A DNA stretch of 63,554 bases, counting the filler, from Globobulimina sp. (lineage: Eukaryota), in the NCBI GenBank assembly GCA_003354225.1. It is 31 parts of 31 records of this genome, joined end to end, with 100 filler letters (N's around TTAATTAATTAA, not from the genome) between each part and the next. Parts side by side here need not be neighbours in the genome. Positions count along the whole stretch, not along the records: positions 24,655 to 26,607 come from PIVH01010245.1; positions 26,708 to 28,660 come from PIVH01010246.1; positions 28,761 to 30,713 come from PIVH01010247.1; positions 30,814 to 32,766 come from PIVH01010248.1; positions 32,867 to 34,819 come from PIVH01010249.1; positions 34,920 to 36,872 come from PIVH01010250.1; positions 36,973 to 38,925 come from PIVH01010251.1; positions 39,026 to 40,978 come from PIVH01010252.1; 23 more parts are not named here. The stretch is one strand, 5' to 3'. The notes beneath the pieces are model-generated. The model did no database searches, was not told the DNA's origin, and worked only from the letters and a program-made list of their open reading frames with translations. Each line of letters begins with the position of its first letter. The first letter of the stretch is position 1. The position numbers were made by a program, and so were the translations under genes. Positions 10,276 through 40,787 of the stretch are shown piece by piece.

Positions 10276-11904
10276 TGGGTGAGGCGAAGAATTTGGGTTC
10301 AGAAAGAATTGTTCGATATTCTGCTTTGGGTCACGTCAAATCTTTTTTTGGATTTGGGAAGAAAACAAAAAGGAAAAAAGGAGCAGCTCATATTGGATAT
10401 TATACAATTGTAATGGGCAGAGAAGCAGTGATAAGATTGTGAGTTTTTTTTGTTTAGTTAAGTGTTGAACAGAAATGTGATGTCTCAAACTGTGTGGTTT
10501 ACAAACCCGCAATGTCAGCTATTTAATGACGACTATGAAATCATAGAAAGTGAGAAGTGTTCAAATGCAAAGCCAGAATTTGGTTCCATTCATACATGTA
10601 TTTGCAGACGAAAATATGATGCGGAATTATTTGTTGTTAAAAAGATATTAAAAGCCAAATTGACTGAAATCTTTCCCTCATCAGACGCCATAATCAAAGG
10701 TATCAAAAATGAAATTGCTGTGCTGAAGCAAATACATCATAGACATATTGTAAATATTCATGAGATGTACGAAACGAAAAGCATTCTCCATATGGTAATT
10801 GATCCTTGTCTTGGCGGACAGCTATGTAATAAATTAAAAATACAAAAACGTTTTGCCGAAACTCGCTGCAAACCCATTATCAAAATGCTTTGTATTGCTT
10901 TGGATTATATGCACGATCAATATTGCATACTTCATTGCGCTTTGAATCCAAATAATATTTTATTTGTCGATGATACGAATAACTCAAATGTAAAAATCAA
11001 TTTCCGTCTGAATCAGTCACCAAATAACAAAACGATAACAAATTATTCTGCGCCAGAAATAATTACAAACAAAGACAAAGATACTCATTTATCTGATATG
11101 TGGAGTGTTGGCGTTATTACTTTTGTGATGATATTTGGTTTCCATCCGTTTCGAATTAAAAATATAAATCCATTTAACACAGAGCGGGAACTGCAACAGT
11201 TTTGCAAATTAATTCGAAAAGGATTTCAAAATAAAATCAAAGTTAATTGAAAGTATACAATTTATTTAATTTACGTCCTTTATAGAAACACTTATAAATA
11301 TTAACAGAGTGGTTTTGGTGCTTTTTTCCCCGCTGCAATGAGTGGCATTTTATCCCGATGTGGCATGGATTTCATATCGCAATTACTTAAAAATAAAGCA
11401 AATAAAAGGATGACTGCTAAAAAGGCATTAAAACATCCGTGGATAAGAGATGTTGTTTTGAAAACAGATGGAAACCACACTGAAGAGGAAAAACTTGAAA
11501 AGTTTGAGAAAAAGAAACAAAGAAAGCTGAGGCTAACACATAGTAATTGTGATAGAAAGCAGAAGGAAGATATCTATGCATATGATCAGGAAATATTTAC
11601 CATTGACAGAGTACACGATGCCTTGAAAAATAACGACAAAAATGAAATTATTGAAATGTTTAATCTGTTGATGGAACAAAACAAAGAATATCAACAAAAA
11701 ATTGAAAAACTGCAACATGATAATGTTTCGCTGGAAAAAGTGATTCAAACGGTGTCAGCGCAGAATATGTCAATGCTATCAAGCAAATGTTATGAGAATG
11801 GACGATTATTTGATAAAACGAGAATTGAGGATATGATGACTCCATTGTCCACGGGTACGCCGGTTCGAACCTATGCGACACCGATCTATGGCATTGATTT
11901 GTAA
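10276..11904 (+). CDS. CAMK-like pseudokinase with coiled-coil tail, 5'-partial, introns ~10439-10518 and 11242-11307
   Basis: VVKKI, NEIAVLKQIHHRHIV, YSAPE, DMWSVGVI and ALKHPW are present. The catalytic loop reads HCALNPNN and DFG reads INF. The second intron joins KIK|SGFGAFFP in frame. Confidence 0.8.
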
Positions 11905-12654: not shown

Positions 12655-14039
12655 TTAAACCATATCTACAAATTGGCAGAAATATTTTTTAAAATCATCG
12701 AGATTTATTCGATCATTTTCATATTTAAATATTGATTCTAATAAAAACATTAAATCTCTGCCAACATAGTGTTGAATATTCCAATGTTGCAATAACTGAT
12801 ACACGGAATTATTGAAAACAAAACTAAATAATGGATCAGATTCATGTGCAATGTCCCATGGACACACTCCGGTCAATAATATAAATATCGATATGCCCAA
12901 ACACCAAATATCATTCTTCTTTGCATCAAATGCATTTTTGTTATTAAAAACCTCCGGTGATTTATAATTGTCCTTTCCGCAAAATTTATTGCTCATAAAA
13001 TGAGATTTTGTAAATTTTTGCGCTAAACCTTTTTTCATATATATTTATAGATTAACACATTAAAACAACTTATTTTTAAATATGTACACATACCGAAATC
13101 ACACAGTTTTATTTGAATATCGTCAGTAAGAAATTTAATCGTATCAATGTTACCATGATCAGTATCACATTGCACCTCAATTTGAACGTCATTGATTACA
13201 AAATTTTCAAGGGAAATATCAAAATGAATGACATTTTTTGAATGTATATATTCAATACATTCAATCATTTGTTTTAATATCACCAACACCAATTTTCTCC
13301 ACTCGGATATGTACAGTTTTTTTGATCCAATTAATTCATGCGATTTAACCGCGAATTGAAATAACGATGTTCCACCATCTTCCATTGCCAACCAATAGTC
13401 TGTTTTTCTATGCATTGATTGTTAGAAATTAATAAATTCTGTAGTTTCCGAACTAAGGTATTCGACAATCGACTCATTCGAGAACGAGTCGAATACCTTA
13501 AATAAATTAAAAAACATTGATAGTGTACATAGTATGCATACGTTTGGAAAAAGCCCTGGAATTTTACAATCGAATTTGGACAATTTTTGCTTTGGGTCAA
13601 ATATTTTAAAATACTTTGTTCTGATAATATATTCTCAGCAACTCTGTATAATGCATTTTTAATAATTGCCGTTGAATTTTCATGAAGGAATTTATTTGTA
13701 ATCTTAATTACTGATTTTTGAGTTGCGCCAAATTTATTTACTTTTTGGGCTTTCCATATCATTCCTTTGTGTTAATTATATTATGAATTGAATCGTATTA
13801 GTCTGTAAAGAAGAAAATGTGCGTATTAATTAGATAGATTTACCTTGTAAAGAGTCAGACAATTTTTTACCATCATTAAATCCAATATTTTGTAATATAC
13901 GCATGATATCGTCGTTTTGTTTATGTTCCTGTGCTATTTCATGGATTACGTTTGTTAAAGATGGAGATTTTGACGGCCATGGTTTTGGTGATTTGTTCAT
14001 TATGGCATTTACTTGCGGTGTTAAGTTTATATTTGTCAT
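12655..14039 (-). CDS. Ser/Thr protein kinase, 4 exons (introns 13765-13843, 13408-13541, 13029-13093)
   Basis: VIK, HFDISLEN, LCDFG, CGKDNYKSPE and DIWCLG are present. Three GT-AG introns splice the four ORF pieces in frame. Confidence 0.9.
13454..13500. mobile_element. 47-bp inverted-repeat (MITE-like) insert in kinase intron 2
   Basis: TAAGGTATTCGAC ... GTCGAATACCTTA is a perfect 13-bp inverted repeat whose outer TA could be a target-site duplication. Confidence 0.5.
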
Positions 14040-20546: not shown

Positions 20547-21698
20547 CCCGGGAGGTCCATCAAAAGATTTACTGTAAAAGAATAGATACACTCAGAGATA
20601 AATACTGGAATCACTCAAGATTTGAACTCTCCAAAATAGCCTCCAAAATAAACACAATTCATAATCAGAAATTTGTGCAAAAAACAATGGAAACGTTTGA
20701 AAATATCGCTGAAAATCCGCGAGATCTTTGGAATATAATCTGTGGAATGAATGGAATAAAAAATGATCAGTTTGAATTAATTTATAAAAAGATAAACATC
20801 AATCTCCCAATATACTTTCCTCAAATACTTGGTTTCAATGATACATAAATGGGTCTGGTTAGTAGACCAAATAGCAAACCATAATGCACCCATCAATAGA
20901 TTTGAATGCAAGGTAAATAGAGTGAATGATAATGAAATATTACACCACACTCGGAATGATACTTTTGATGATTGGCTACATTACAAGCACAAACTGAGAC
21001 CAAATGATCTCGTGTTTGCCACTGACTCTTCCTCGAAAAATGATCTGACAGGCATAGGTGTATACTGTGTCAACGACAACAAAGAAATAGAAATAGATCA
21101 ACCTGCTGGAGCAGTTTCCAATAATTATGGTGAGCTCTTGGCAATCTATAAATGCAAATTGTACATTGAGAACCATAATATAAATACAGATAATAGACGC
21201 ATAATTATCTTCACTGATTCGCTGAATAATTATCTTCCATTGATCACCACTCCAATAAAATACAGAAAGAAATTAGATTTCCCTGACCTGTATGAGAAAA
21301 CACAGAAATTCCTGATAGATTACAAAGTCATACTTTGGAAGATAAAATCACATACCAATCCAGAGCAATGGTTCAATCATAAAGCTGACAGACTTGCAGA
21401 TAAAGGGCGAATAAATATACTCAATAATAATAGACTTGCTCTTGCTGATAATGACCTGTTCGGAATGAATATAAAAACAAGGGTAGATATATCCACCCCA
21501 ACCTCCTTCTCCATTTGGCACGGCAGTGTAGTCTACGTGCAAGCTTGGAGCCAAGGACTCATCCTCCATATGGGGTGGAAGGGTCACTCCAACTTGGCTA
21601 AGTTTTCTACACTCAAAAAGACTCAGCACAATGATCGAACATTATTCAAGAAGCATCGAAAACAATTGCAAATTCTACGTCTATACATCCCCGGATAG
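20547..21698 (+). mobile_element. Retroelement-type RNase HI region (probably the 3' end of a degenerate non-LTR element)
   Basis: VFATDSS, NNYGELLAI, IIFTDS and KSH..NHKADRLA give the RNase H acidic tetrad. Upstream frames are broken. Confidence 0.7.
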
Positions 21699-22623: not shown

Positions 22624-24114
22624 TCAAATATTATCGAAGCGTGTGCAAACGCATGCCCTCAAGATGCCATTGATATCACTCAAAAAAAAATTGATATGGG
22701 GCGATGTGTTTTCTGCGGAACCTGTGAACGTGTTTCGAATGGAGACTTTGTTGTTATTCCATAACGTTTTTAATAAATTTATAAATATTTGTTTGCAGAC
22801 CGTACTGTTATTTGTTTGGACAACAAAATTCTCAAAAATCAAATGAAAATATTCCAATGAACTTGTCAGATTTAATACTTTTGAACACCACTCATAATAT
22901 TTAATATTGTCATGCATCGATAATGTCAAATCGCGCAAGAAATGCATGGTTTCCATTTGTTTAAATGTATCATCCAAAACAAATATGCGTAGCTTAATAT
23001 GTAACGATAGTTTTTTTAATTTTTTATGTATGATAAATTGTAAAAATTTCGACATCCTCAACTTACATAATTCCATATACTCCGTTTCATGATTTTGTCG
23101 ATTTTGTCCGTTTATAATGCAATAATTTGCATTTACATTATTTGATTTTGAGGCAAATAATTCGCACCAAATATCCTCAATATCTTGCAACAAATTTGTG
23201 TTTAGATTATTATGGTTAAAAAATACATTTTTAAATATGGAACGAGTTGAGATTTTTAATTGTTTTAAATTTGCAAAATTAGTTGAAATATATTGCAACA
23301 ATGCAAAATCAATCCGGATATTATACAGTTGAATTAATTTAAAATGTGATTTATTTTTATGACAAATATGCGACAATGTTTGTGTAATATTATTGGATGA
23401 TGGAGGCTGATGATTCCATAATGACGAATCGTAGATATTTATCGACGACAATGCAGTTAATGTTGGAATAAAATTCATTTTAAATAACAGTAAATCTGTA
23501 AATATATCCTCAGAATGGTTGTATTGCAGTGATAAATGAGAAACGCTTTGCGATAATTTATAAAATGAAGGCAGTGGATGGTTGCTGAATTGTTTTGAGG
23601 TTTTCATAAATGATATCATTTTACGAGATAGCCAATGAGAGACTGTATGGATAAGTAATGGCTGACGCACCGCGTAAATAAATTGATGCGATACAAACTG
23701 TGTTGAGGTCAACAATTCCTTCATGTCAACGAATGTTAAAACATTTGATAATATATTTACTGGCATTTGACTGATATCATCAATGTATAGTATCGATTTT
23801 GCTTTTTTTTCATCGTTTTTGTCGTTTTCCTGTTGCGCGTTTTCTTTCTTTTCTTTATTTTTATCTTTATTGTTTTTGATGAGTTCATAAGCGATATCTA
23901 ATGATGATTGAATGGATTTGGATGATAATAACTCATTTTTACACAATTGAAATAATAATTGAGTGATATATTTATCATTTTGTTCAACTAAATCAGTTAT
24001 CAATGGCACGACTGCTGCAATAAATAAAGATTTAAATAATACTGGATCTGTCGAATGAGTTCGAAATAATTTGGTCAATTTCAAAATAGTAGATAGCTTT
24101 TCGGTGCTCATCAT
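22624..24114 (-). CDS. F-box-like protein with Leu-rich C-terminus
   Basis: ISQMPVNILSNVLTFVDMKELLTSTQFVSHQF is F-box-like. The ORF is 496 aa. Confidence 0.6.
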   Translation of the reverse strand: MMSTEKLSTILKLTKLFRTHSTDPVLFKSLFIAAVVPLITDLVEQNDKYITQLLFQLCKNELLSSKSIQSSLDIAYELIKNNKDKNKEKKENAQQENDKNDEKKAKSILYIDDISQMPVNILSNVLTFVDMKELLTSTQFVSHQFIYAVRQPLLIHTVSHWLSRKMISFMKTSKQFSNHPLPSFYKLSQSVSHLSLQYNHSEDIFTDLLLFKMNFIPTLTALSSINIYDSSLWNHQPPSSNNITQTLSHICHKNKSHFKLIQLYNIRIDFALLQYISTNFANLKQLKISTRSIFKNVFFNHNNLNTNLLQDIEDIWCELFASKSNNVNANYCIINGQNRQNHETEYMELCKLRMSKFLQFIIHKKLKKLSLHIKLRIFVLDDTFKQMETMHFLRDLTLSMHDNIKYYEWCSKVLNLTSSLEYFHLIFENFVVQTNNSTVCKQIFINLLKTLWNNNKVSIRNTFTGSAENTSPHINFFLSDINGILRACVCTRFDNI

Positions 24115-24655
24115 CAGCTCATGTGAGTCGACAAGTTTTTTAATATAACATCATACTGAGCCTACTGATGTTTGATAAAAGCAATCGATGGAACCAACGC
24201 CCTTATACAGTATTTGCGCTCTCAATTGCGTCTGGTAAATGTATGATCGACATATCCTAACTTGGATTCCACACAAATCCGAAAACAAAACAGGATTAGT
24301 ATCGTATAGGTTGTCTTTGCATGGATGGTGCTGTATTTGTTATGCATTCCGAATATCATCAAATAAAAGATTTACTATGAATTACATTGCTGCCTTTGCT
24401 GTTACCCCGCTCGCAGTCGTTTCGTCAGCCTTTATATCATCACATATCTCAATACAATGTTATAAGCACTATATCGATATCAATGACCCGAAGATATTTA
24501 ATTTAAATTATCAAGCATTATCAATTTATGATTGGAACAGTAATTTTCATAAATNNNNNNNNNNNNNNNNNNNNNNNNNNNNNNNNNNNNNNNNNNNNTT
24601 AATTAATTAANNNNNNNNNNNNNNNNNNNNNNNNNNNNNNNNNNNNNNNNNNNNT

Positions 24656-25780
24656 GAACGTAATGAGGATCGCTGTGTCAAAAAAATACTATTATTTGGA
24701 CTATCTAATTGTGGCAAATCAACCATCATGAAACAATTAAGAATAATACATGGCGATAGCTATTCATACAGAGATAGACTGATATTTATTGATATAATCC
24801 ATAAACAATGTTTATCGCAAATGAACATAATGATACAATACTTATTAAATCACAATGACAATCCATATAATAAAATGTCCAAACAATTACTGGATGCAAT
24901 ACAAAATATAAACGATATCAAAACAGAAAATATAAAATTAAATAATTCAATCGTTTCCTCTATAAAATATTTGTGGAACACTCCAGCAATACAAAGAATA
25001 TTTGAAATGAGAAACGAATCACCAAATTTAAATTTATTTGAATGTACAGAATATTTTTTAAATGATATTGATAGAATCAATGAAAACCAATACATTCCAA
25101 CTGATAAAGATATTGTTTTTGTCAATCAGAGACATACAAAAAGTGAAAGCATTCAGGAACTTCGATTTCGAATACATTCTCATAACTTTTTGATGATTAA
25201 TATTGATCAAAACGTAGAGAGTCTTAATAAATGGTTTCATTGCTTTGATATGATAGCTTCTCTCATATTTGTTGCATCATTACCTTGCTATGATTCTGCT
25301 TGTTTTTACAGTTTACATTTATTAGTATTTGGATATATAAATAATATGCCATTTGATATGGATATCCCATATGATTTAATTGAACTAATTTCAAATTTTT
25401 GTCCTTCCGAATTAATATCAAATACAATGAGTGATCAGTTGGAATTATTTGACAATGTATTAAATGATATATTTTTAAGGCGCACCTCAATGGTATTATT
25501 TTTAAATAAAAAAGACGAATTTCATCGTAAAATACAGTCGATTCCAATTACAGTATGTTCATCGCTTAAAGAGTATGATGGTGATACTCAATCATACGCG
25601 GACAGTTTGGATTTTATTCGATATACTTTTGAAAGCTTGAACAGGAATCCAAGAGAAAGACAAATATATACACATACGACATGTGGTACAGATAGAGATA
25701 ACTTAGAAAAGACATTCAATGATGTACGTATGATCTGGGTATCACAGTCTCTGTGTGCTGGTTTTCCCAATTTATTGTAA
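24656..25780 (+). CDS. Divergent heterotrimeric G-protein alpha subunit, 5'-truncated, with internal insertion
   Basis: KILLFGLSNCGKSTIMKQLRIIHG, YIPTDKDI, KWFHCFD, LFLNKKD and HTTCGTD are present. DVGGQ is replaced by NIDQN. Confidence 0.9.
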   Translation, partial: ERNEDRCVKKILLFGLSNCGKSTIMKQLRIIHGDSYSYRDRLIFIDIIHKQCLSQMNIMIQYLLNHNDNPYNKMSKQLLDAIQNINDIKTENIKLNNSIVSSIKYLWNTPAIQRIFEMRNESPNLNLFECTEYFLNDIDRINENQYIPTDKDIVFVNQRHTKSESIQELRFRIHSHNFLMINIDQNVESLNKWFHCFDMIASLIFVASLPCYDSACFYSLHLLVFGYINNMPFDMDIPYDLIELISNFCPSELISNTMSDQLELFDNVLNDIFLRRTSMVLFLNKKDEFHRKIQSIPITVCSSLKEYDGDTQSYADSLDFIRYTFESLNRNPRERQIYTHTTCGTDRDNLEKTFNDVRMIWVSQSLCAGFPNLL

Positions 25781-25934
25781 CGCAACTTTGGACATCGCGG
25801 AAAAGTGAACGTTCACTAGTTTTGCATGAATTATTTCTGTCGACTATGATTTCGTTTGTGTTGACTCTGTTTCTTTTGTGAACAGTGACTGAGACCGTGA
25901 CTGCACAAAAAACTATGCAAATATTCATTTGTAA

Positions 25935-26607
25935 TTATTCCTGGTTTTGTTGATAAATATTGCATAAATTATTATACATTGTAGCATGCTCAGTATACTG
26001 TAAGCTATCAACCGATCCGTTACCTTCTCCATTTATGCCATCAGCACATCCAACTTCACTTGTTTTTAAATATATTTTTTTATGCAATTCAGCATCACAA
26101 AAATAACCCAATGCAGCTGCAATAGCCTCTGTTCCCCAATTACTTACTCCCGCTGTAATTAGAAAATCACAACCAATCACACATCCAATTTTATCTCCAT
26201 GTTTAATATTTCTCCTTATATTTTCAATAACATTCCCCATTCCACACTCATTGCCACCATCACCAATACCAACGGTTCGAATTCGTTTTATATTTTTATT
26301 CACATAGTCAAATAACGCCGCACTTTGCCCACATTTCTCACTGACATCTCTCGCTGACATTGTCCTAAATTTTCCATCAGCTCCAAATCCTGCTAACTCC
26401 GATGCTATCAATATATCCACATCTGAAAATTGTTTATTTTCTACAAAATCGTTCTTAAAATCCATGTTATCGCTACATACGTATAGCTCCAACTTATTTT
26501 CTAATGTTGATATTTGATTGAAATAAGTGACCAATGGCTGAATTGCTGCATTATTTATGGGATCTATCATCATTGTTACTTTTTTATTTTGTTTTAACAA
26601 TGAATAG
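25935..26607 (-). CDS. DGLUCY: D-glutamate cyclase-like (DUF4392) C-terminal part
   Basis: TVGIGDGGNECGMG and LITAGVSNWG signatures. Confidence 0.8.
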
Positions 26608-26830
26608 NNNNNNNNNNNNNNNNNNNNNNNNNNNNNNNNNNNNNNNNNNNNTTAATTAATTAANNNNNNNNNNNNNNNNNNNNNNNNNNNNNNNNNNNNN
26701 NNNNNNNAGTTTTATGCGTTTTTGGAAAATTTATCAATTTCGATCATTTTACTTGGGAACTGATTTTCGGTCAATTTTCGTTTACAATTTTTCAGAAGGA
26801 AATGTAGATAAAAGTGGATTTTTGGCAACA

Positions 26831-28660
26831 ATGACCATAGTAACAATGGAGGATAAAGAAGAATACAATGTCAATAAAATTGTCGCTAACAAACAGGGTT
26901 ATCCTTGTAGTGATCAAATTGAAGCTATTGTTATTCCTCGTCTTTCTGTTATAATGGATTTAGATGATGACATGTTGGCAAAAATATTTACTTATATCAG
27001 CCATATTTCAAAAAGAATGGAAATAGAAGAAATTTGTAAAAGATTCAAGCATATATCATCGACTAATACTAATAGTTGGAAAGGAATAAATAGTCTTGAT
27101 TTGGGTAAGTGTTAGTGTTGGAATTTGCATATAGGTGTGTTTATTTTTGTTTGTGTATAAAAGATTTGCTAATTATAACTGGCATATTGGTCTGCATTTG
27201 AGAGGTGACGAGTGTTGTGTAGAATAGATAATATACAATAGTGTACATACTGTACATGTTAGTTAATGTGCAGTAGTGTTTTTGGATTGAGATTTATATC
27301 AAAGTGTTTATTGTATTCGTTTTTACAGATTACCGTTGCTCCAAAGACTATCGTGATGAACATATGGTTATTTCTGGTTTATTGAATAGAAAATATTTCA
27401 TTCGATATGAAAAATGGCCTGCTTGTGTTCAATTATTAGTCGATCGAACAATTATCAGACGACTTACTGTACGTTACGGAATCGACGAGGAAGATCCGAA
27501 TTATGTTGTATGTAGTGAAATCAATGAAATACTATTTTCGAACAATATTGTCAACCAAATGCAACTTAACTATCTGAAATGGCATTGTCGCGAAGGCGAT
27601 TGTTATATGTATGGTTATTATGATAGGGATATGGGCGATCATTCTCGCGATTTACCAAATTTATTCAAAAGGCTCTTTATTCATTGTTTAACGATTTGTC
27701 AACCTTATTTGAAAGACTTGGTTATCGTATCACCGCCTAGTGAATTTTGGGGTAGTACGGAATGTGTTGATGGCAAAGAAGAACTTTCTGCTTTGCAAAT
27801 GGTCGAATATTGTAATAAATTAGAAACCTTTGGTATTCAATACGATGACCGTTGGTTTCATAATGATTTTGACTTGGCAAAATTTCTTATTGGAAAGCGT
27901 TTGAACAAATTGGTTTTTGCCCGAATACATAAATTAAGACAATTGGATGATATTGCTAATGTTATTAGTAATGCAAATCTAGATGGAGTGAAAAATCTCT
28001 CATTGACAAGTAAAGAAAATATTATAGGGATTGAAATCGATTTTGTTGACTTTTTACCTGAAGAATATGGAAAAAAAATCCAATGTATAACGCTAAATGG
28101 AGTATTTGAAGACATCTTGACGCGCTGTCGTGATATCCCTTCCAAGTTTCCAGAATTGCGAAAATTGAAAGTATCTCGTGTTACCTTATATCGTCGTATA
28201 AGAGGACAGGAAGAACTTGATGAAAACGTTGAAGATACGAAGGTATATTATTATTATTTTTATTTATAAATAGGAGTTTTGTTTTGTTGTCCGGATCCTT
28301 TGTAGAAAAAACGGTTCCACTTTGGACGTACAGTATGTACAATATACTTTAGTTTAATGGTAAAAGGACATTGGTTTATTTTTAGTTATTTCGCGACATG
28401 ATCCATTTTTTCGATGAATTTGTTGATTCACGTCTTGGTCTTGAAATAATAATAGACACCCTATACATGCCAGGTCCATTTTCTCGCTTTGATGGATTCA
28501 CTCATCGTCTTGATAATGCCATTGTTCAACATAACTATGGAAAAGATGAGGGTCAGCAAATTGTTATTCAGTTCAGTGATGAATTGGCAGAACCTGAGGT
28601 GGAAATTGAAAAAGGCGGTAGGAAGATAGAAATCAAATCGATTGTTGATGATTATTATCG
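26831..28660 (+). CDS. F-box/LRR-like protein, introns 27105-27328 and 28243-28385, 3'-truncated
   Basis: IMDLDDDMLAKIFTYI..IEEICKRF is F-box-like. Both introns join the three ORFs in frame. Confidence 0.65.
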
Positions 28661-28802
28661 NNNNNNNNNNNNNNNNNNNNNNNNNNNNNNNNNNNNNNNN
28701 NNNNTTAATTAATTAANNNNNNNNNNNNNNNNNNNNNNNNNNNNNNNNNNNNNNNNNNNNTATTTTGATGACGATTTTTTTAACTTACAATTTTGGTCCA
28801 CA

Positions 28803-30026
28803 ATGGCAATGAAGTTCATTCCAAAAGGACTTGAGTTAATTAAACAAGCAAAAGGATTTGAAGAAACCCATGATTACCAACAAGCATTAAAATGTTATTC
28901 AATGGGAATTCAATATCTAAAAACAGCCCTAAAATATGAAAAAAATGACAAAGTAAAGAAAGCTATAAAATCAAAAATAGAGAAGTTTGTAAGGAGAGCA
29001 GAACAAATCAAAAATAATCATATTAAACATAAACGTGCTGAAAATGGTGCAATTAGTGGTAACATTGAAAAAATAATTTTTGGATTTTGTCATAAAAGTG
29101 AACAATTATTACATATAAATATACCAAAAGATATTATGCGTGAAATTATTTTATTTTATCATCTTCATTCAATACAACATTTCATTGAAACACCAAAAGT
29201 AAAATGGGATCATATTGGAGGATCACAAAATATTAAATTGCATCTAAAGGAATATTTGATTTTACCCCTTAAATTTCCTCAATTATTCGCTGGGAAAAGA
29301 AGGCCAAATTATGGCTTATTGTTATATGGACCGTCCGGTGTCGATAAAACACATTTAATCCGAGCAGCTGTTACAGAATCAATTGCAATCAATAATGATG
29401 AATCTGACACTGTATTTTTTAATATTTCATTGAAAGAGTTACTTCAAAATGCTCCAACATACGGTGCAGAAACAGAGAAATTGATTCGAAGCATATACGA
29501 ACATGCGAGAAGTAAGAAAAATGCAGTAATTTTATTGAATGATATCGAATGTCTAACCGTAGGACGTTCATATAACAAAAAGGATGACTTTATTAGACGG
29601 TGTAAAGTGGAATTCTTAGTGCAAATGTCATGTGATGGCAACAGGAATTGTCATATTTTTACAATTGCAGTGACCCCAAAACCATGGGATTTAGACCTTG
29701 CATTAAGGCGCAAATTCTGTAAGAGATTATATGTTCGAATGCCAGATCAAGATGAAAGAAGTGAAATATTTAAAATTCAGATTCGTTTGATATTTGGAGA
29801 CAATTCACCGAATTTGAATGACAAAGATTATAATATAATGGCACAAAAAACAGATGGTTTTAGTTGTGGTGATATTCGGAGTGTACTGCAAAATTGTTTG
29901 GCGTCAAAATCGAAACAATTGGAATTGAGATATTTGTTGGAAATTATACAAAATATAAAACCATCTGTTGATGCAACAGAAGTCAAAAGATATGTTGATT
30001 GGACAAAAGAATTTGGGATGGAGTAG
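28803..30026 (+). CDS. VPS4: Divergent Vps4-like MIT+AAA protein, intronless, degenerate Walker motifs
   Basis: N-terminal MIT domain, ILPLKFPQLFAGKRRP, RRCKVEFLVQM and C-terminal WTKEFG. Walker A reads GPSGVDKT and Walker B reads LLNDIE. Confidence 0.85.
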   Translation: MAMKFIPKGLELIKQAKGFEETHDYQQALKCYSMGIQYLKTALKYEKNDKVKKAIKSKIEKFVRRAEQIKNNHIKHKRAENGAISGNIEKIIFGFCHKSEQLLHINIPKDIMREIILFYHLHSIQHFIETPKVKWDHIGGSQNIKLHLKEYLILPLKFPQLFAGKRRPNYGLLLYGPSGVDKTHLIRAAVTESIAINNDESDTVFFNISLKELLQNAPTYGAETEKLIRSIYEHARSKKNAVILLNDIECLTVGRSYNKKDDFIRRCKVEFLVQMSCDGNRNCHIFTIAVTPKPWDLDLALRRKFCKRLYVRMPDQDERSEIFKIQIRLIFGDNSPNLNDKDYNIMAQKTDGFSCGDIRSVLQNCLASKSKQLELRYLLEIIQNIKPSVDATEVKRYVDWTKEFGME

Positions 30027-30813
30027 ATCGAATAATTATTACTGTTTTGTTTAGTGATATCGATCGGATTTGGTGTTATAAAAATCATGATTGCAATCTA
30101 AAAATTACACGACGTAACTTTGCCATTCAAATTGATATACATTAAGCTATAAAATATTTTTTCGGTAAAGCCTATAAAATAATAATATAAACAAACAAAC
30201 CAAACATAAACCAACCAAAAATAAAAAAGTCAACGATTTTGAAAATAAAATTAATGAAACTCAACATTCGTTTACCATCCATGTATACATGGTTCAATGT
30301 GGATTGCTTAATTAAGTGGTTGGCAATGCTTTGAACTACGATATTTTCACTGAACCTGAAAAGAATCATATTTATTATCAATCAACAAAAACAAAAACAA
30401 GAACACAATACTCGTATTTTGCTACGTTATGAACAGAAATATAATATTTAAAACAAAAAATGATATCATATGATCTTCCTTAAATTCAGAGAGCGTAGAA
30501 GCACAACGCATAATTTCTATTATTAGCGGAGGAGGCATTGTTGACATTAATTCACCACATTTTAACGAATCTTGTTTGTTTATAGACAGTTTCCATTCTG
30601 ATTCTTTTAGATGTTGTAAGCATGGAAAGCGTTTCTGTATTCGATGTAATATTGATTATAAATTCAATGCCAAATTAGTTTGAGATGTTTGGTGCTGATG
30701 GTTCAATTAAATANNNNNNNNNNNNNNNNNNNNNNNNNNNNNNNNNNNNNNNNNNNNTTAATTAATTAANNNNNNNNNNNNNNNNNNNNNNNNNNNNNNN
30801 NNNNNNNNNNNNN

Positions 30814-32766
30814 TGATAATCCAACAGAAATTATTAAACGCTTCGTGGATACATCAAATGAACAGCAGTTAACAAAAATTTATGATATTTTAAAAAGCGC
30901 CAAATTAGAATCAGAAGCAAATGTGGACTTAAATGATAATAACACAGCAGCGCGTTTTAATATACTTTCAACCACATCAATATCCCATATTTGTTCCTAT
31001 TTAACTCGATATGATATCCAATGTTTGAAAGTAACCTGTTCGCTCTTAGGGATTATATGTATCAATGAAATGAGAAAAATCAAAATTGGTACCATCAATT
31101 TTAATGAAATATCAATGCACAAAAATTATAAATATTTAACAAAATTAAGTGAATTTTCGACGCATCAGTTAATAAAATACAATTCCTATAACCCGTCAAT
31201 GAAATGTTCCACGTTGTTGCAGCTCTGGCAAAGCCAATACAACATACAAGTGACTGATATGATATTATTCAAAATCTTTGATGACAGATTATTGCCCACA
31301 TTATCCACTATAGCACATTTTCCATTTTCTGCAGATCGCGATAATTATAACAATGGTATAAAGTTTCTATGCTCGCTGACATCGCATGTCGGCATTATTG
31401 AATATATGAATGAATTGCAGCATGAATATAAAATCCAAGACATTAAAGGTGGGATGAAATCAGTTATCATTTTCGATAAACATAAAATACGTTTATTAAA
31501 TAATCAGATTCCAGCGCAAATTACGCAAAACGATTATATTGTCATACTCAATTATTTTGATATTGCAACACAAACAGTTGAATTTCTACAATTGCTTTGC
31601 ATTCAGAAACAGGCGGATGACGCTGGGGAAACACATAGGTCTCTGACTGTCAGAGCTTTCAGTAATTATATACAAAATAATTTTGATAAATTGCTCTCGC
31701 GATTTGAAATAGATGAAACAATAAAAAATATTCTAAGTAGTATCGATATTGAGGCGCAAAGAATTATTTTGTGTGCTGATAATATCGAATTGTTCAAATT
31801 CTATGAATGGAATGAAACCGATAAAAGTAAGTTGAGTCGACGCGAATTATCACATGATTTAATACCAAATACTTTTATATCAAACATTAAAATATTCGTA
31901 TTTCAAATAAATGATAATTTTATTCAATTTAATGAATATCTGAACCAAACCAAACAAAAATACCAACATAAATGTTTAAAACCGTTTTATTTCAATGCTC
32001 AAGATTTTATGTCCGATTATAATTTGATTGAGAAAACATTTAAATTGAGTTATTGCAGCAATATAACGACATTAACATCCAAATTAAAATATTTTTACTC
32101 AAACTCCAATGAAGAGAACAAAATTAATTCTAGCATTTTGGATAAAATCATTGATAAAACTCGTAACAAATTCAATATTGAACTTGAAGTGACACCGTTT
32201 ACTTCATTCGGTTTAATTCGAAGAATAATATCGTCAAAATTAGATGATATAGTCCCACCAAATAATATTGAGATTTACACAAAAAAAGAAGGTTCAGGGT
32301 TTGCTTATGGTGGATATATTTATGCAAGAAAGTCATGGAAATCCGTAATAGATAATATATCAAAGTATAAACCAAAAACTGCATATCATACATATAATAC
32401 ATCGAGCTTTTTTTTACGGTTATCATTTGGTATCACGTTGTATGACACAAAACGCATTGAACCGAATTGTACGTTATACAGAGTTCGCATATTTTTGCCA
32501 TGCTTTGCCAATGAAGTAATTTTGCCCAAAACGCCATACATTTTAAATATTAAATATTTTAAATGTTTTTTAGTGAAAGATTTTGTCAAAGAAATTGTAA
32601 ACAAGGCAGCTCATCCACTGTTTTCAAAGAAGTTTTCAAAGATTTTATCGTATTTTGAAGACATTGGAAATAATGAAAACAGCAAAAACTGTCCAATTAT
32701 GATCAGTAGTTATTGTGGTTATAATTCGTGCTATAATTGTTTAGATAGAAACGATGAATTCAGCAT
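30814..32766 (+). CDS. Large hypothetical protein with N-terminal F-box-like motif, partial at both ends
   Basis: Open across the whole contig. FNILSTTSISHICSYLTRYDIQCLKVTC is F-box-like. Confidence 0.55.
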
Positions 32767-32866
32767 NNNNNNNNNNNNNNNNNNNNNNNNNNNNNNNNNN
32801 NNNNNNNNNNTTAATTAATTAANNNNNNNNNNNNNNNNNNNNNNNNNNNNNNNNNNNNNNNNNNNN

Positions 32867-34464
32867 TATCAATTGGAATCTATGAAGAAATTCATTCAAG
32901 CAACGCCTGGCACGAAAGAGATCCGCGGCCAATGGGCTGCCAATTTAGCCAATGATTCTATGATGGTCTCGTTTGGCAATAATAACGAAGTCATTTTATT
33001 ATTAAAAATTGGTTGTTTTATTGACAAATTGCATATAATGTATGAGGAGAATGGTGTATTGCGTAAAAACAGTAAAATACGCAAACAAACACTAAAAACC
33101 TCCTGTTGGGGATTGGAGAAAACACAAAAATCATTAAAATTTGATAATAGTGTTATTATTCAAGAGAATTATGGTATTGACTTATTTGCAGATTCAATAT
33201 TAAATATATCGCCAATTATTGTATATGTTTGCAAGAAAAGAATAAATCGATTGTATGTTAATAAATTGCGTATAAATAATTCAATAATAAATTTAAATAA
33301 GCGACCATTTCACATTCGAAAAATATTAATACCATCATTAACAAACAAGGAACAGCAATTACTACGATTAAAATATGGAAATACATTATTAAATAAAGGC
33401 TGTACCAAAGCAGGAATCAAGAAATCAATCAAAAAAAATAAATCAATAATTATAAAAAAAGAAAATAAACATAAATATAACACAAACAACACAAAGAACG
33501 AAAATAGCACAGATGAGTCGACTGAATGTGACCAAGATAGTGATTTTAATCCAGTCAAACCAAAAAAAATGGACACAGACGATGATGAAAATGATAATGA
33601 TGATAATGATGATAATGGTTTTTATCCAATAAAAAAACATCATAAAAAATATCTAAATGATTCAACTTCACTTATTTCCATGGACCCAATTAAAGTTTGG
33701 TTTTATCCTTGCACTCAATTGCTAGCATTTATAGTTTACTTTATACCCTTTGTTATTACATACATAATACATAGGAACCAAAGACAATGGGTAAAGATTT
33801 ACAATCATTTACAACAAATTCATATCAGTTTACACCACAAGAACCAATTGCAATGTATGATGCAAATATGGATTTTAATACAAATACATTTGATTCCCAA
33901 TCGCAATCACATCCACATCCCAATATCAACATGCCTCCAATCACAAATTTCAATGATGATCCATTAAATTGGGATATTGATCAGTTTGCTACGCCAATTA
34001 CTCGTTTTCCATCCATCAGTTCAATCAATTCAATAAATAATGACTTTCCAAACCATTTTGAATTTAATGACCCAAACTATCCATTAAATGATATGGATTT
34101 GGATCTACATCACAATTACAACAATAACCATAATCATAATCATAATCACAACCTTTTCCCACTCCCACTCCCACAAACACCATATATTGATCATAGCCAT
34201 ATTGGTGTACCATTTGTGAACCATAATAATAATCCTCATAATTATGCTAATAATAATAATATGAATGAAATGCAGCAATTAAGGCAACAAAATGAGTTAT
34301 TATTACGTCGCGTAGCTGATCAACAACGACAAATTGAATTTTTAGCAACACAAATTGGTACAGTACGTTCTGAGCATTATGCATATTATCCGGGGCCATA
34401 CAGACGAAATCCCTTAAAAAGAAGAAGAATCAGTTCTGATGCGTTATTGCCACCGGCTGCATAA
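32867..34464 (+). CDS. Hypothetical regulator-like protein with acidic, Asn/His-rich and coiled-coil C-terminus, intron 33695-33774, 5'-truncated
   Basis: The intron joins DPIK|EPKTMGK in frame. Coiled coil LRQQNELLLRRVADQQRQI and NLS-like KRRR. Confidence 0.55.
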
Positions 34465-34919
34465 AGTAGTTTTTGCAGAATAAATAAATTTTTGTATCTC
34501 GTAATCGATCTCGTTTGCAGGCGGTAGAAATTCCTTAAAGATACTTTTTATTTTTTGTTTTTCTGTTTAAATCTGTATTTATTTTTCTTTCATCTTCTTT
34601 TCACTCATTTTAATTTATTTAAAATCCGTTTGTGATTGTTGTGTGTGCACATATTTGAATTTATGGATTGAATACAATTTCTGTGATTTTGTATCCTTTG
34701 TAATGTATTTATATCCATCATTTTCAAAATCTTTTTATATTTAATCACAAAAAACAACTGTGGATGTCTGAGAAATAACATATTTATTTTTTTTTGTATT
34801 TGCAATGAAAAATGTCAGANNNNNNNNNNNNNNNNNNNNNNNNNNNNNNNNNNNNNNNNNNNNTTAATTAATTAANNNNNNNNNNNNNNNNNNNNNNNNN
34901 NNNNNNNNNNNNNNNNNNN

Positions 34920-35617
34920 AAAACTTGAAAGCGCGGTACATGTCTTGCAAAATAAGAAGCAAATATGCAGTCTTTGGATATATTAGAAAAACCGAGAATG
35001 AATTGACATTAACCAATGTTCCATTGTTAATTATGCATTTGTGCATGATATATTATCATATTCCCGAATATTTTAGCAAATGCTGTGATGGTATTACCTT
35101 GTCATCAGACCAGAAAACAATAACCAAAACAAGCAGTTGTGGTTTCAGCGACTGTTGGCAAAATACAACGTATGGATATGATTGGATTGAATCGGTGTCC
35201 AATGTTGTGGCAACGTGGAAAATGAAAATTAATCGTACGGGTTGTTCTATTTCTATTGTTGCTGACGAACATGCTACGAATGAAGGCATTGATATGAAGG
35301 GAATATTGGGATTTGGCATGGATTCAAATGATCAGATATTTTATTCAGTTTATCAAAGTGGAACCATCCAATCCCATGCAATCATTAATGGCCAAAGTGA
35401 TATTATATTGGATAAAGGAGATATCATTTCATTCATTTTAGATTTATATGAATCAAAGATAAAAATTAGGAAAGATGATGAAACTTACACTTTATTTTCA
35501 AATATTGAAAAAAGGAATGATGTGAAATATAAACTGGCTGTTTCATTGCGTGACTATGTCGGCGATCAAAGTTCAATCACTTTACTAAGTTATTCCAATC
35601 AATTTACACATAACTGA
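34920..35617 (+). CDS. SPRY/B30.2-like protein with N-terminal FGYI..VP motif
   Basis: ITLSSDQKTI, WKMKI, KGDIISFILDL and YKLAVSL fit a SPRY-like beta-sandwich. Confidence 0.6.
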
Positions 35618-35836
35618 CGCTCACGATTTTTTTAAACAACAATTTATGTCCTTTCGTCTTAACTGTTCTATTTTTATATCCTTGCACTCAGTGAACAATT
35701 TGTCCTTTAAAAGCATATCCCTTACTGAATTTACTTGGATTATTTGGGAATGAAGTGGTTGATATTGTTGATGTCCCGAAAAAAATCATCTGCTGCACAA
35801 TTTAACTAAATCACTCGAGTGTTTTTTGCGTCAGGA

Positions 35837-36872
35837 ATGGCAGCGATTAAACGAACAAAAACACAGATTTATGAAGGCATTTTATACAAACAAGGTCGTA
35901 GGAACAAAGCATGGAAAGAGAGGTTCTTTGTGTTATACAGCGACCGTACTATGGCATATTTTACCTCAGAATCAGATTGGGACAAAGGGAAACCAATGGT
36001 ATCACAGATCAACTTGTCATTGACACGAAGCATAGCGCCATCCACTAAGAAAATGGACCTCAACGCAAACTCAGTTGAAAAGCAAATGAAAAAAGTCAAA
36101 AGTAGACGTGGTAGTTTATCGCGTAAATGGAGTATAGATTTTGGCGCCATATTCAGCAATAAAAAGGGCGCCGGCGATGATGAGCAGGAATCAGACGAAG
36201 AGAATGATGGTGAAATCGCCTTTATCGAATTGGTTTTAAATCAACAATTTACGTTCGAAATAGTTCAAGCAAAGCGAACGTACAGTTTATGCACTGACAA
36301 TCCGACCAAATTCAATAAGTGGCTGAACAAATTAGAAACGACTACGTTTGGCAGGAAAGTGTACAAAGGCTGGTTATTGAAACAATCAGAAAGGAACAAG
36401 AAATGGGATAAGCGATGGTTTATCATCTATGATACCAAAGAGATGCGGTACTATGACGATGCAACGCGTGCTGTGTCGCGAGGATTGGCCATATTGACGC
36501 AGTTGAAGAAGATTACGAAAATGGATGATGAGAAAACGAAAAAGAAATATAAACAAACTAATGTGCTCAAATTGGAATTTAAGCAAAGAACTATGTTGTT
36601 ATCGTGTACTCCATCCGATGATAGGGTATGTTTTTATAATTATTTTATCCTCGCACTCTCGTCTCGATCTCTTATGTGTTGTAATTGTGATATTGTGCAA
36701 AGTGTGAAAAATGTTTCCAGTGTGTGATGTGAGCATTGATTTAAAGATTTTCTTGAAGTGAAGTGAAGTAAATGCTTGAGTTTTCCATCATGGCGTCCCC
36801 TTTTAATGCAGTGAGTATTGCATATGTGTGCTTGTTGTGTGTGTGTAGCGAATATGGTTCGATAAGATGTGT
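35837..36872 (+). CDS. Tandem PH domain protein, intron 36626-36848, 3'-truncated
   Basis: YEGILYKQG..WKERFFVL and YKGWLLKQ..WDKRWFII. Splicing supplies the terminal Trp (DDR|RIWFDKM). Confidence 0.85.
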
Positions 36873-37369
36873 NNNNNNNNNNNNNNNNNNNNNNNNNNNN
36901 NNNNNNNNNNNNNNNNTTAATTAATTAANNNNNNNNNNNNNNNNNNNNNNNNNNNNNNNNNNNNNNNNNNNNTCCCCCCTCCCCTGCTCGATAAGTTGTA
37001 TACATTTTATTCAATTAGCGTAGAAACGCTTTTCAGATCCAGAAACTGTTTGCTATAGGTTTGTCTTTGGTTTGTTCTGTGTTTGTCTGCAAATCAACAA
37101 ATTTATAATTTAATTTTCGGTATACAAAAGGTGGGTTATCCAAACAGTTATTAAGGTGGGTTATCTTTTGGAATATCGTTCATTTGTTTAGCTAAACACC
37201 TTAAGAGCCCGGTAATACAAATAGAATATTATACAAAAACAAAAACAGAAAAATGATTTAGAAAATAGAAACCGACCAAAACATGCAGAACGAAAACAAA
37301 AACGTTGTGTTTTTATTCAATGTTCTTGTTCTGATCAAAAAAAAAAGCATATACTAAGTATTAAGAGAA

Positions 37370-38925
37370 TCATTTTTTTTGCGGTAATCCATAGCCACAA
37401 ATAGCTAACAACAACTTCTTATAATCTCCAGACACTGCACTTTCATCTTCAAACCATTGGTTTAACGTCAATCCATCACCATGACTCTGGTTGAATACAC
37501 CTGTCACATTTTGCAAATCCACATCAGCCCTCGAAATGATCACTCTTTGCAACAAATCATTATTAGTGCCTGCCCCACGCATGGACACTATCAACAAATT
37601 CGCAAAAAAATCATACGGTTTACACGCAAACGACTCGATAATCATCATTGCTTTGCCTGTATCACCGCCACCAAACTTATCCTTAATCGCATGATTCAAT
37701 GTCCATTTCAACGACACGTCGGGGAAAATCTTACTAATTTCACGAATCTGCGTCCACGACCTCGTCGTAAATATCTCCACAAACTTTGCCTTGGTATCAC
37801 TGTCTTTCTTCCCTTTCAATAAACCATTCAATACATTGGCATCGCTGTGGGCTGCCCGGACATCAACGCTTCCATTTGCCGGCCGCTTGCCTTCCCACAA
37901 TCAGCACAAATATTTGGCATAATTGCCCACTTTGCCTTTGCTCGTATCTTTGCGGATTCTGTCCAATAAAGGGATGCCTTTGTACCACGCATTGCGCATA
38001 GCGGCGATCTGAATGGCTGTCCGAGTGCAAATTATCTCGTTCAATAATTCTGTTTTGAATCCCAAGCCCTCCACGCCGTCATCCACTTGAATGGCGTCGT
38101 ACAAACCGGTGGGTTGCCACAATCCGACCACCACTTTCTTGAAGCTGCCACTTAGGATTTTCTTGAGGTCCTTGACCAAATTGCAGGGCTTATTCTTTTT
38201 ATCCGTTTTCTTGTTGTATGCCTCGGCGATTTGCATTCTCTGTGCCTGCGAATAGCTCACCGTCACTGTGATGATCGTGTCGTTTCGGTCTGCTTTATTC
38301 GCCAAGGCCGCCGCCACTGTATTTGCTGCTTTGTTTGCTTGCGAATCAGAGAAGTGTTCGAATGCGGCAATGGATGGCGTTGCATCGGCAAATGGCTGCT
38401 CATGAGTCCCTGCATACGATTCTTTTTTTTCTTTTTCTTCTTTGCTGTCCTCTTCTTCATCTTTGCTGTCTTCTTGTTGCTGTTTTTCTTGTTGCTGCTG
38501 TTCGATTAGCAATTCCATCGCGTCCAACTCTTGTTGCATTTTACCGATTGTCAATTCTTGCGCAGCTACGTCTTTCTTTAACTTATCGTTTTCGTCGAAC
38601 ATACCTTGGCTTTCTTGCTTTGATAAATTAAATTGAGTGATTTGGTTTTTTTGGCTTTCTAGTTGCCGTTGGATGGCTGCCTTTTGTTTCGATAATTGCT
38701 GTTTTAATCTTATATTCTCCATTGATAAACGTTGGAATTTCCCGTCTAAATATAATAAATGTAACATATATATGAAGTACAATACCGTATATATATATAT
38801 ATCGTTTATACCTGAATCTGAATCTGATTGTTTGCTTTTGTTTGGCTGTTGAGCCATATGACTGATTTTCTCTTTTTGTTGTTGTATGGCATAATCCTGG
38901 TCTTGTAGCTTGTTTTTTAAATTTT
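37370..38925 (-). CDS. Annexin with N-terminal coiled coil, in-frame TGA at 37901-37903, intron 38746-38811, 5'-truncated
   Basis: LKKILSGSF, GLGFKTELLNEIICTRT, MRGAGTNNDLLQRVIISRA and SGDYKKLLLAICG mark the annexin repeats. Confidence 0.85.
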
Positions 38926-39484
38926 NNNNNNNNNNNNNNNNNNNNNNNNNNNNNNNNNNNNNNNNNNNNTTAATTAATTAANNNNNNNNNNNNNNNNNNN
39001 NNNNNNNNNNNNNNNNNNNNNNNNNGGCAATTCGTTGGGAACGAAATTGTATATTCCAAAGATTTTCTATTCATATATTGTTTTGTTGATGAAATCCATC
39101 GATAAGGAAACAATTCCTCCCAAATATAAGCAGTTGAAATCTGTGTTGAAATTCTATACATTGGAAATGATTCAGTTGATGCCAGCGGCACAGAAAGAGG
39201 TAATGACGAAAGAAATTTATGATTCGTATTTTTTAATATATTTACAGGAGATTATTGATAAAAGATCGCATTTAATTGCAAAGACATAATTGTATATATT
39301 GTGTTGCGTTGAATTTTGTGTTTGATACAGGTCTTTTTTATACAGATAGTTAGCAAATGAGTCGAACGTACGGATTTTGCCGGAATTTAGCAGTGTTGTT
39401 TTGTGGCGGAAAATAGCATTCTTGAATTAATAGGTGGTTACAATTAAATACTTCAAACAATTTGTAGCACAAATCATGTCATTA

Positions 39485-40623
39485 TCACATACATAGATTA
39501 ATGTATGGCGGCGGATTAATTCTTTTTAATGCAATAATATCATGAATTTGTTTCTCATATTTCCTATTTATATCAATCCTAATCCGGCCATGTCCGCCAT
39601 TCGCATACAATCCCCATTTGCCACCGTAACCCCCTCTTGCTTGAATCAATGATTCTTTGTCCATTTCAATCGTATCATTTATAATTAAATGAATAGAGCC
39701 GCCCGAACCGGCACCAGCGCCGATCATTGCATCCCCACCATTCGCAGTGATACATCCATAATTTATCAATTTATTACATTCTATAAATATGGCACCGCCG
39801 CCATCACCGCCAAGATTGCAAATGGATCCACCACCACCAGAGCCTAAATGCAATACAGTTAAATATTTATCACCATAAATTTCGCCGCCTTTCCCTGTGT
39901 TATCAATGCCAGATTTTACATCTTCACTCATTTTCCCATGGCCTCCGCGCGTGGAATATCCCCCACCGCCTTTTTATTGTTTTTTTAATTGATAAATGCG
40001 GAGAATTGAACATGTACAGTTACTACATACCGGCACCACATGTCTCTAATCCTGCACCTTTTAATTTGTTTTTTGTTGCAGATAAATGCGCCGAGAATGC
40101 ACAGATTTTGAGTGCATGACATACCTCCACCGCCTACATTTGGTGATATATCATGGAGTGTACCCATCGCATTGCAGGACTCGCCGGATGTGAAATATCC
40201 GCCGGATATATAGCCACAACAATCCACTTCAATTTTGCCGCCTTTTTCAATGATAATATTACCTTTGCACTTTAATAATAATCGGCCACCAACAAAAGGA
40301 CTGAATTCTGAGGAGATGTACGTTAATATTAGTTGTTGGATATCAGTGGAATAGTTTATTACGCTGTGATTACTCCAATGGCATATTAACATATCTACTT
40401 TATATGGAGCGATGCTATGTTTTTTATTCAGATTTTCATTTCTTTGCCGTTTATAGTTATTACGGCCTAACCATGGCGATATTGTCAGTGTGCATCCTTT
40501 ATCAATGTGTATGTTATCAAATTCATGAACTATATCGGAGTCCAATTCCAATAGATTTGGATCGTGGTTCCACAGTTGATGTTGTTTTAGTTTTTTGAAT
40601 TTCATTTCTAAATTGGTAGACAT
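39485..40623 (-). CDS. Glycine-rich repeat protein (GSGGG / GGGAIxI / GSGGSI), intron-containing
   Basis: LGSGGGG, GGDGGGAIFIEC, ITANGG, GAGSGGSIHL and GGHGRIRI across two ORFs. Exact splice sites near 39970-40110 are not resolved. Confidence 0.6.
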
Positions 40624-40787
40624 TGTTTGTTTTGATGATATGTATGATAATTAATGAAAAGAATTGAGACGTTTGATACGTCGAAAGAATTAGATTTGTT
40701 GCTTTCAAAGCGCAGATGACCAAAAAAACTTTGAATTGAAGTTTCCGTTAAATATGGCAACGTCCATTTGTTGTATGCATGAAGAAA

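Follow-up and report, generated by a model that had tools for sequence, protein, structure and literature searches.

Three otherwise unrelated proteins encoded in a 63,554-nucleotide stretch of DNA from Globobulimina sp. (assembly GCA_003354225.1; hereafter the window) carry copies of one undescribed module of about 40 residues, as judged by sequence profiles. The hosts are a G-alpha paralog, a Vps4-like protein and a SPRY-domain protein, the first two with degenerate catalytic motifs. The window is AT-rich and eukaryote-like and consists of about 31 contigs of about 1.95 kb each, joined by Ns. The original prediction had flagged four peptides in it as copies of a mobile, SOCS/BC-box-like module; all four translate exactly as given and lie on four separate contigs, one on each. 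Three of them are true members of the family, whereas the fourth, in a Gly-rich open reading frame (ORF), is not.

Profile evidence and anatomy of the module

The family was examined with a profile hidden Markov model built from the three copies, the check that had been proposed for it. In the six reading frames of the window this profile found its own three members only, the fourth peptide not being among the matches. Against 1,835,955,588 representative proteins it returned 22 matches at E≤0.001, of which 17 proved on inspection of the sequences to be true full-length motif matches, so that the family stands far above chance. The other five are leucine-rich repeat (LRR) proteins that resemble the motif solely through repeated 'NQLTSINIPAEL' units and were rejected as false positives. 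A 19-sequence alignment, comprising the three window stretches and 16 external sequences, was then used in a second search for longer proteins, which gave 27 proteins at E≤0.1, including 17 new ones. Scanned over 135 proteins, the 19-sequence profile identified 40 motif copies in 38 non-LRR proteins; 19 of these copies had themselves trained the profile.

The key control was a profile made from the 16 external sequences alone and run over 1292 six-frame ORFs of the window. It recovered all three copies: that of the SPRY protein (69.1 bits, E 1e-20), that of the Vps4-like protein (41.5 bits, E 4e-12) and that of the G-alpha (19.3 bits, E 3.6e-5). The best of the other window ORFs had 12.8 bits. 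By contrast, the claimed fourth copy (40318..40404, minus strand) was recovered at E≤10 by none of the three-copy, 19-copy and external-only profiles, was absent among the motif copies in the 135-protein scan, and has neither of the two residues that mark the family, a Gly present in 39 of 40 copies and a Pro present in 39 of 39. It is thus a chance resemblance and was rejected as a member. The surrounding contig holds two Gly-rich ORFs with GGGG or GxGxG runs, at 39488-39973 and 39988-40650, both on the minus strand in different frames. Neither has a match in Pfam, and they probably belong to a single gene that is split by an intron or a frameshift.

The consensus of the module in short form is LLVFGYIR..E..L-loop-[ND]IP.[DE]II.LC..FYH. 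Column counts give [KE]-L-L-V-F-G-Y-I-R-x-x-E-x-x-L, a variable loop, and [ND]-I-P-x-[DE/L]-I-I-x-L-C-L-L-F-Y-H. Besides the Gly and the Pro, the conserved columns are Y (35/40), V (33/40), I27 (34/38), C (30/39), F (29/39) and a second Y (32/38). The first helix (...[KE]LLVFGYIR..E..L) is amphipathic, the loop has 2 to 10 residues, and the second helix is Pro-capped and almost wholly hydrophobic, with 8 of 9 positions hydrophobic (I,I,x,L,C,L,L,F,Y); hydrophobic runs in the motif reach 7 to 9 residues. The motif starts within 25 residues of the N-terminus in 25 of the 40 copies and is internal in the remainder. The module is predicted to form a helix-loop-helix. In the AlphaFold2 model of the SPRY host, helices span residues 2-21 and 29-39 on either side of a loop, at a predicted local distance difference test (pLDDT) score of 50-68, and the host domain follows directly. 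A model of P0098, a RasGEF protein with two copies (aligned with its relative P0120), likewise has a helix-loop-helix at both motif sites, which at a mean pLDDT of 37 is read as secondary structure only.

As far as the profile matches reach, the module is attached to a wide range of unrelated proteins in a protist lineage, and the idea of a mobile module on unrelated proteins is borne out by the diversity of host domains among these relatives. Recent spread by a DNA repeat was considered and rejected: nucleotide identity between the window copies is 45-53%, which points to an old, selected spread at the protein level and not to recent repeat activity.

Host proteins

The first host is a G-alpha paralog (24656..25780, plus strand) whose 5' end is truncated where the contig begins and which matches the Pfam G-alpha profile at 4.1e-74 (250 bits). 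Motif copy 1 (25295..25417, plus strand; 48.2 bits with the 19-sequence profile) is inserted between 'CYD' and the conserved 'N.M', which we take to be the end of strand beta4 and the segment preceding helix alpha3, that is, the switch III loop. In an alignment with nine relatives, switch II (25196..25234, plus strand) reads INIDQNVESLNKW against FDVGGQRSERKKW in the relatives; DVGGQ has become NIDQN, with loss of the DxxGQ Gly and the catalytic Gln, and the residue aligned with the switch I Arg is Asn. The P-loop GxxxxGKST (GLSNCGKST), NKKD and TCGTD are retained. The closest relative, P0005 (43% identity), has an insert at the identical site, between 'CY[DN]' and 'N.M', and a likewise degenerate switch II (NVYQD). 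The insert is absent from the other eight of the nine aligned relatives, and only 1 of 88 G-alpha matches has the motif.

The presence of the same insert, in frame and at the same site, in a relative of 43% identity argues that the insert is coding, and contigs from related strains are colinear through it. Among the differences listed, 16 of 32 are synonymous in the comparison with run X6 and 8 of 12 in that with run X2, against a random expectation of 0.19, with 38 further differences outside the count. This excess of synonymous changes indicates that the degenerate G-alpha is under purifying selection and is not a decaying pseudogene. A contig from run X7 matches 25265-25294 and 25488-25515, with 94 other letters in place of the 193 of the window (25295-25487). 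Its shortfall of 99 bases, or 33 codons, is about the size of the insert, with flanks of only 28-30 bases; the contig is weak evidence for a canonical-length G-alpha paralog lacking the module in a related organism, and not for a spliced form. Downstream of the G-alpha gene, a 39-base stretch (25834-25872) lies in the spacer before a convergent D-glutamate-cyclase-like gene (25938-26606, minus strand; Pfam GLUCM-like_C, 3.6e-41). Its summed contig depth is far above that of its flanks in three of four runs (129 versus about 5 in run X1), and it also occurs in otherwise unrelated contigs; it is probably a short dispersed repeat.

The second host (28803..30026, plus strand) is a Vps4-like protein with MIT, AAA and Vps4_C domains in Pfam and degenerate ATPase motifs. 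It could be aligned residue by residue with yeast Vps4 (5uie; phmmer 8.4e-59). Motif copy 2 (29046..29177, plus strand; 58.5 bits with the 19-sequence profile) takes the place of the flexible linker between MIT and AAA and is aligned opposite the unrelated Ser/Gly-rich linker of the yeast protein. Canonical G-alpha and Vps4 proteins thus lack the segment, as had been supposed. In the same alignment, all on the plus strand, the Walker A motif is the variant GPSGVDKT (29328..29351; GPPGTGKS in yeast), the pore loop KWMGE is replaced by YGAE with extra residues and loss of the pore-loop Trp (29448-29471), the Walker B motif is degenerate (29529..29552; ILLNDIEC for IIFIDEVD, that is, IDE to LND), and sensor-1 GATNIPW has become AVTPKPW (29667-29687), with Pro in place of Asn.

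The third host (34940..35617, plus strand) is a protein of 225 residues in which motif copy 3 (34943..35074, plus strand; 74.5 bits with the 19-sequence profile) forms the extreme N-terminus. Its AlphaFold2 model has a mean pLDDT of 81.4 and consists, from about residue 45 to 225, of a SPRY beta-sandwich. Foldseek matched it to the B30.2 domain of TRIM67 at 3.3e-8, and VIA to the IUS-SPRY domain of RanBP10 (Z 17.6, rmsd 3.3 over 170 residues) and the SPRY domain of HERC1 (Z 17.3); the VIA matches cover model residues 37-224 and hence barely include the hairpin. The top matches of the fold search are solved E3 ubiquitin-ligase assemblies, namely SPSB3-EloBC (8okx), CTLH/GID receptor modules and TRIM B30.2, in which SPRY domains recognise the substrate. 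A Pfam scan of the window protein itself gave no match, a search for homologues of nearly equal length found none, and an Atlas search with the protein gave SPRY-type leads only. Nineteen relatives nevertheless align with it, one of which, P0102, reaches 26.9 bits with Pfam SPRY against a cutoff of 26.3. The three host identities therefore agree with those first proposed, the third by its fold.

The host is identifiable in 14 of the 38 motif proteins. The combination of motif and SPRY is the commonest architecture of the family: six SPRY hosts were found at Pfam E≤0.01, with P0102 alone above the curated cutoff, in addition to the window protein recognized by fold. Two proteins of about 900 residues, P0098 and P0120, are RasGEF hosts in which the motif occurs twice, first ahead of RasGEF_N and again between this domain and the catalytic one. 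The remaining identified hosts are two G-alpha proteins, one Vps4-like protein, one Rab5/22/31-like GTPase and one tubulin-like fragment. The other 24 proteins have no Pfam match at E≤0.01; several are short fragments, and many can be aligned with the SPRY family.

In the Rab-like host, P0124, the motif precedes the GTPase domain, and DTAGQE is replaced by DVSHKA with a three-residue insertion; the P-loop, NKCD and ETSAK remain intact. The protein ends in '...GMVLL' with no C-terminal Cys and is therefore unlikely to be prenylated; its N-terminal module may take over the targeting to a membrane or partner. The tubulin-like fragment, P0125, scores 29.6 bits in Pfam, below the cutoff of 33, has no PDB match, and was left out of the nucleoside triphosphatase (NTPase) hosts assessed. 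All four NTPase hosts that could be assessed (two G-alpha, the Vps4-like and the Rab-like protein) are degenerate at catalytic positions. The proposal that the module had been grafted into dead enzymes is thus upheld in the window by the switch II of G-alpha and the Walker B and sensor-1 motifs of the Vps4-like protein, and outside it by the DTAGQ of the Rab-like protein.

Other genes in the window

Three further ORFs, at 22627-24150 (minus strand), 26660-27115 (plus strand) and 30770-32818 (plus strand), contain stretches that look F-box-like by eye, such as 'MPVNILSNVLTFVDMKELL' and 'DDMLAKIFTYISH'; the one scanned against Pfam, 22627-24150, had no match. Protein-kinase domains are split over adjacent ORFs in different frames, at 12658-13421 (minus strand) and 10462-11901 (plus strand). 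This is as expected for short introns and indicates that long in-frame ORFs are not generally to be expected in this genome. An ORF at 20796-21695 (plus strand) has an RNase H domain (Pfam 1.2e-6) and is possibly a retroelement remnant.

Comparison with known modules and possible function

Searches of several kinds linked the module to no known family. The four motif segments had no match in Pfam at E≤10, SOCS_box, VHL and F-box included. The 19 segments searched singly at the same threshold again matched none of these three families; they gave only GED, ASK_PH and AARP2CN, with one member each and unrelated, in a search whose HMMER filters discard most matches above about 0.1. The 19-sequence profile found nothing meaningful among PDB sequences, the only match being Vam6 (E 0.35 over 22 residues), and an Atlas search with the motif alone had no usable match. 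A pattern search of metagenome loci with a five-sequence alignment gave 19 pattern matches, none of which was confirmed. No description of such a motif was found in a literature search made without full texts. The module thus appears to be new, having no detectable relative in the Pfam, PDB, Atlas and literature searches.

We tentatively favour, with somewhat less than even confidence, the view that the module serves for docking and connects its hosts to a single common partner, or hub. Judging from its occurrence at N-termini, in loops and in linkers, the module is autonomous. Because it is also too hydrophobic to stand alone and keeps the same residues on unrelated hosts, it would be expected to bind something common to them, and a shared external partner would impose just such host-independent conservation. 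Docking to the hub would follow the logic of the F-box and the SOCS box, although no homology to either can be detected. The NTPase hosts, with degenerate catalysis and retained nucleotide-binding motifs, would act as nucleotide-locked binding scaffolds that are delivered to the hub or recruit it. An E3-type hub is plausible as the partner and is the leading candidate, since SPRY recognition domains are the main host. In a fuller version of this proposal, the module is a convergent, lineage-specific counterpart of the F-box or SOCS box. It would connect both SPRY receptors and nucleotide-locked pseudo-enzymes (pseudo-G-alpha, pseudo-Rab, pseudo-Vps4) to a hub, either a ubiquitin ligase or something comparable, and the dead enzymes would serve as substrate receptors for their natural partners. 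As a whole, this version is rather doubtful.

Two known systems help to place the docking proposal. The F-box (PF00646/PF12937), a three-helix unit of about 45 residues that starts with LP.E, docks to Skp1 in Skp1-cullin-F-box (SCF) ligases. Like the module, it is short, helical and promiscuous and usually lies N-terminal to the recognition domain. We compared the 40 copies with consensus patterns of known modules, using shuffled controls and, for the BC-box, including the flanks. The F-box helix-1 pattern hP.[DE]hh..hh..h fits the second helix of the module in 12 of the 40 copies (shuffled mean 0.0). However, the module has no Pfam F-box match at E≤10 and, in its low-confidence model, two helices only, and its conserved FGYIR helix precedes the 'IP' helix instead of coming two helices later. 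The second system is that of pseudo-GTPase and pseudo-ATPase scaffolds, which the G-alpha, Rab-like and Vps4-like hosts resemble in having lost catalytic or switch residues while keeping the P-loop (all three) and NKxD (G-alpha and Rab-like). They differ from such scaffolds in that the degenerate hosts all share one added module.

Several observations weigh against docking to a common hub. Pfam, PDB sequences and the Atlas connect the motif to no known hub-binding domain. The hairpin was modelled at a pLDDT of only 50-68. The degeneracy of all four assessable NTPase hosts may not be special if degenerate NTPase paralogs are common in this organism. Finally, the presence of two copies in each RasGEF protein and the hydrophobicity of helix 2 fit self-pairing at least equally well.

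Self-association is accordingly the main rival, less likely than hub docking but a real possibility. Two hairpins would form a four-helix bundle through which hosts dimerise or form hetero-pairs, or which is intramolecular where a protein has two copies. Consistent with this, both RasGEF relatives have kept their two copies, the conserved hydrophobic positions, helix 2 included, are more than a lone two-helix hairpin can bury, and the Gly that is nearly invariant at the centre of helix 1 would be typical of a close helix-helix crossing; the termini of the hairpin, moreover, lie close together, which suits insertion in loops and linkers. The arrangement would resemble short helix-turn-helix motifs for dimerisation or docking, such as those of the RIIa/Dpy-30 type or LisH, which also have about 35-40 residues, two helices with the second Pro-capped, and an aromatic-rich end; SPRY and LisH occur together in RanBP9/10, the proteins whose fold the SPRY part of the host matches best. 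Yet no segment of the module has a Pfam match to RIIa, Dpy-30 or LisH, and pure homodimerisation motifs usually drift between paralogs, whereas here the residues are kept across unrelated hosts. A complex prediction of two motif copies, in which the alignment was not used, gave a score of 0.00, which counts neither way on binding.

An improbable alternative is that the module is an element for localisation or for association with membrane or cytoskeleton, or a regulatory lid that folds back onto the host domain. Both helices are very hydrophobic and the Cys is conserved, the G-alpha, Rab, RasGEF and Vps4 hosts belong to proteins that generally work close to membranes, and P0124, lacking a C-terminal Cys, may need another targeting device. 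The hydrophobic runs are nevertheless too short for membrane insertion, and an intramolecular lid would not stay so conserved on unrelated host folds.

Still less probable is the reading of the original prediction, in which the module is a diverged SOCS/BC-box or VHL box that recruits Elongin BC and a cullin, with the dead enzymes as substrate baits. The module shares its size and helicity with the SOCS box (PF07525) and the VHL box, and its host range parallels that of SOCS-box and F-box proteins, SPRY domains being found in SPSB (SOCS box) and FBXO45 (F-box) and a SOCS box on a Rab GTPase in Rab40. SPSB3-EloBC, furthermore, is one of the structures matched by the fold of the SPRY part, and I..LC...Y in helix 2 resembles the L..LC...I of some BC boxes. 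The loose Cul2-type pattern hP..h...h is present in 38 of the 40 copies (shuffled mean 4.0), but it does no more than restate the conserved IP..I...C of the family. The strict BC-box pattern [STPA]L...[CSA]...[AILV], on the other hand, occurs in 0 of 40 copies (shuffled mean 1.0) and the Cul5 box LP.P in 2 of 40 (shuffled mean 0.8), and the profile searches of Pfam and PDB sequences gave no SOCS or VHL match. SOCS boxes lie C-terminal to the substrate-binding domain, whereas the module is N-terminal or internal, and its model has two helices, not three. The homology proposed earlier is thus not supported; by its sequence the module is recognisable as none of the three boxes (SOCS, VHL, F-box), and we do not file it under any of them. 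Chance similarity, or introns left unspliced in frame, to which the AT-rich, low-complexity sequence and the spurious fourth peptide might point, is close to refuted by the recovery of all three copies with the external-only profile and by the G-alpha insert that is kept in P0005 and colinear in related strains.

Small promiscuous docking modules such as the F-box, the SOCS box and BTB organise whole regulatory systems. The SOCS-box reading of the window is corrected here, in that the module cannot be recognised as a SOCS box and the fourth of its proposed copies is spurious. At about 40 residues, the module offers a short, well-defined bait for finding its partner. Its pairing with SPRY domains and with degenerate G-alpha, Rab and Vps4 proteins leads to the concrete hypothesis that pseudo-enzymes are reused as binding scaffolds. 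If it is indeed a new docking module, it would establish a new principle of wiring in a little-studied lineage of protists.

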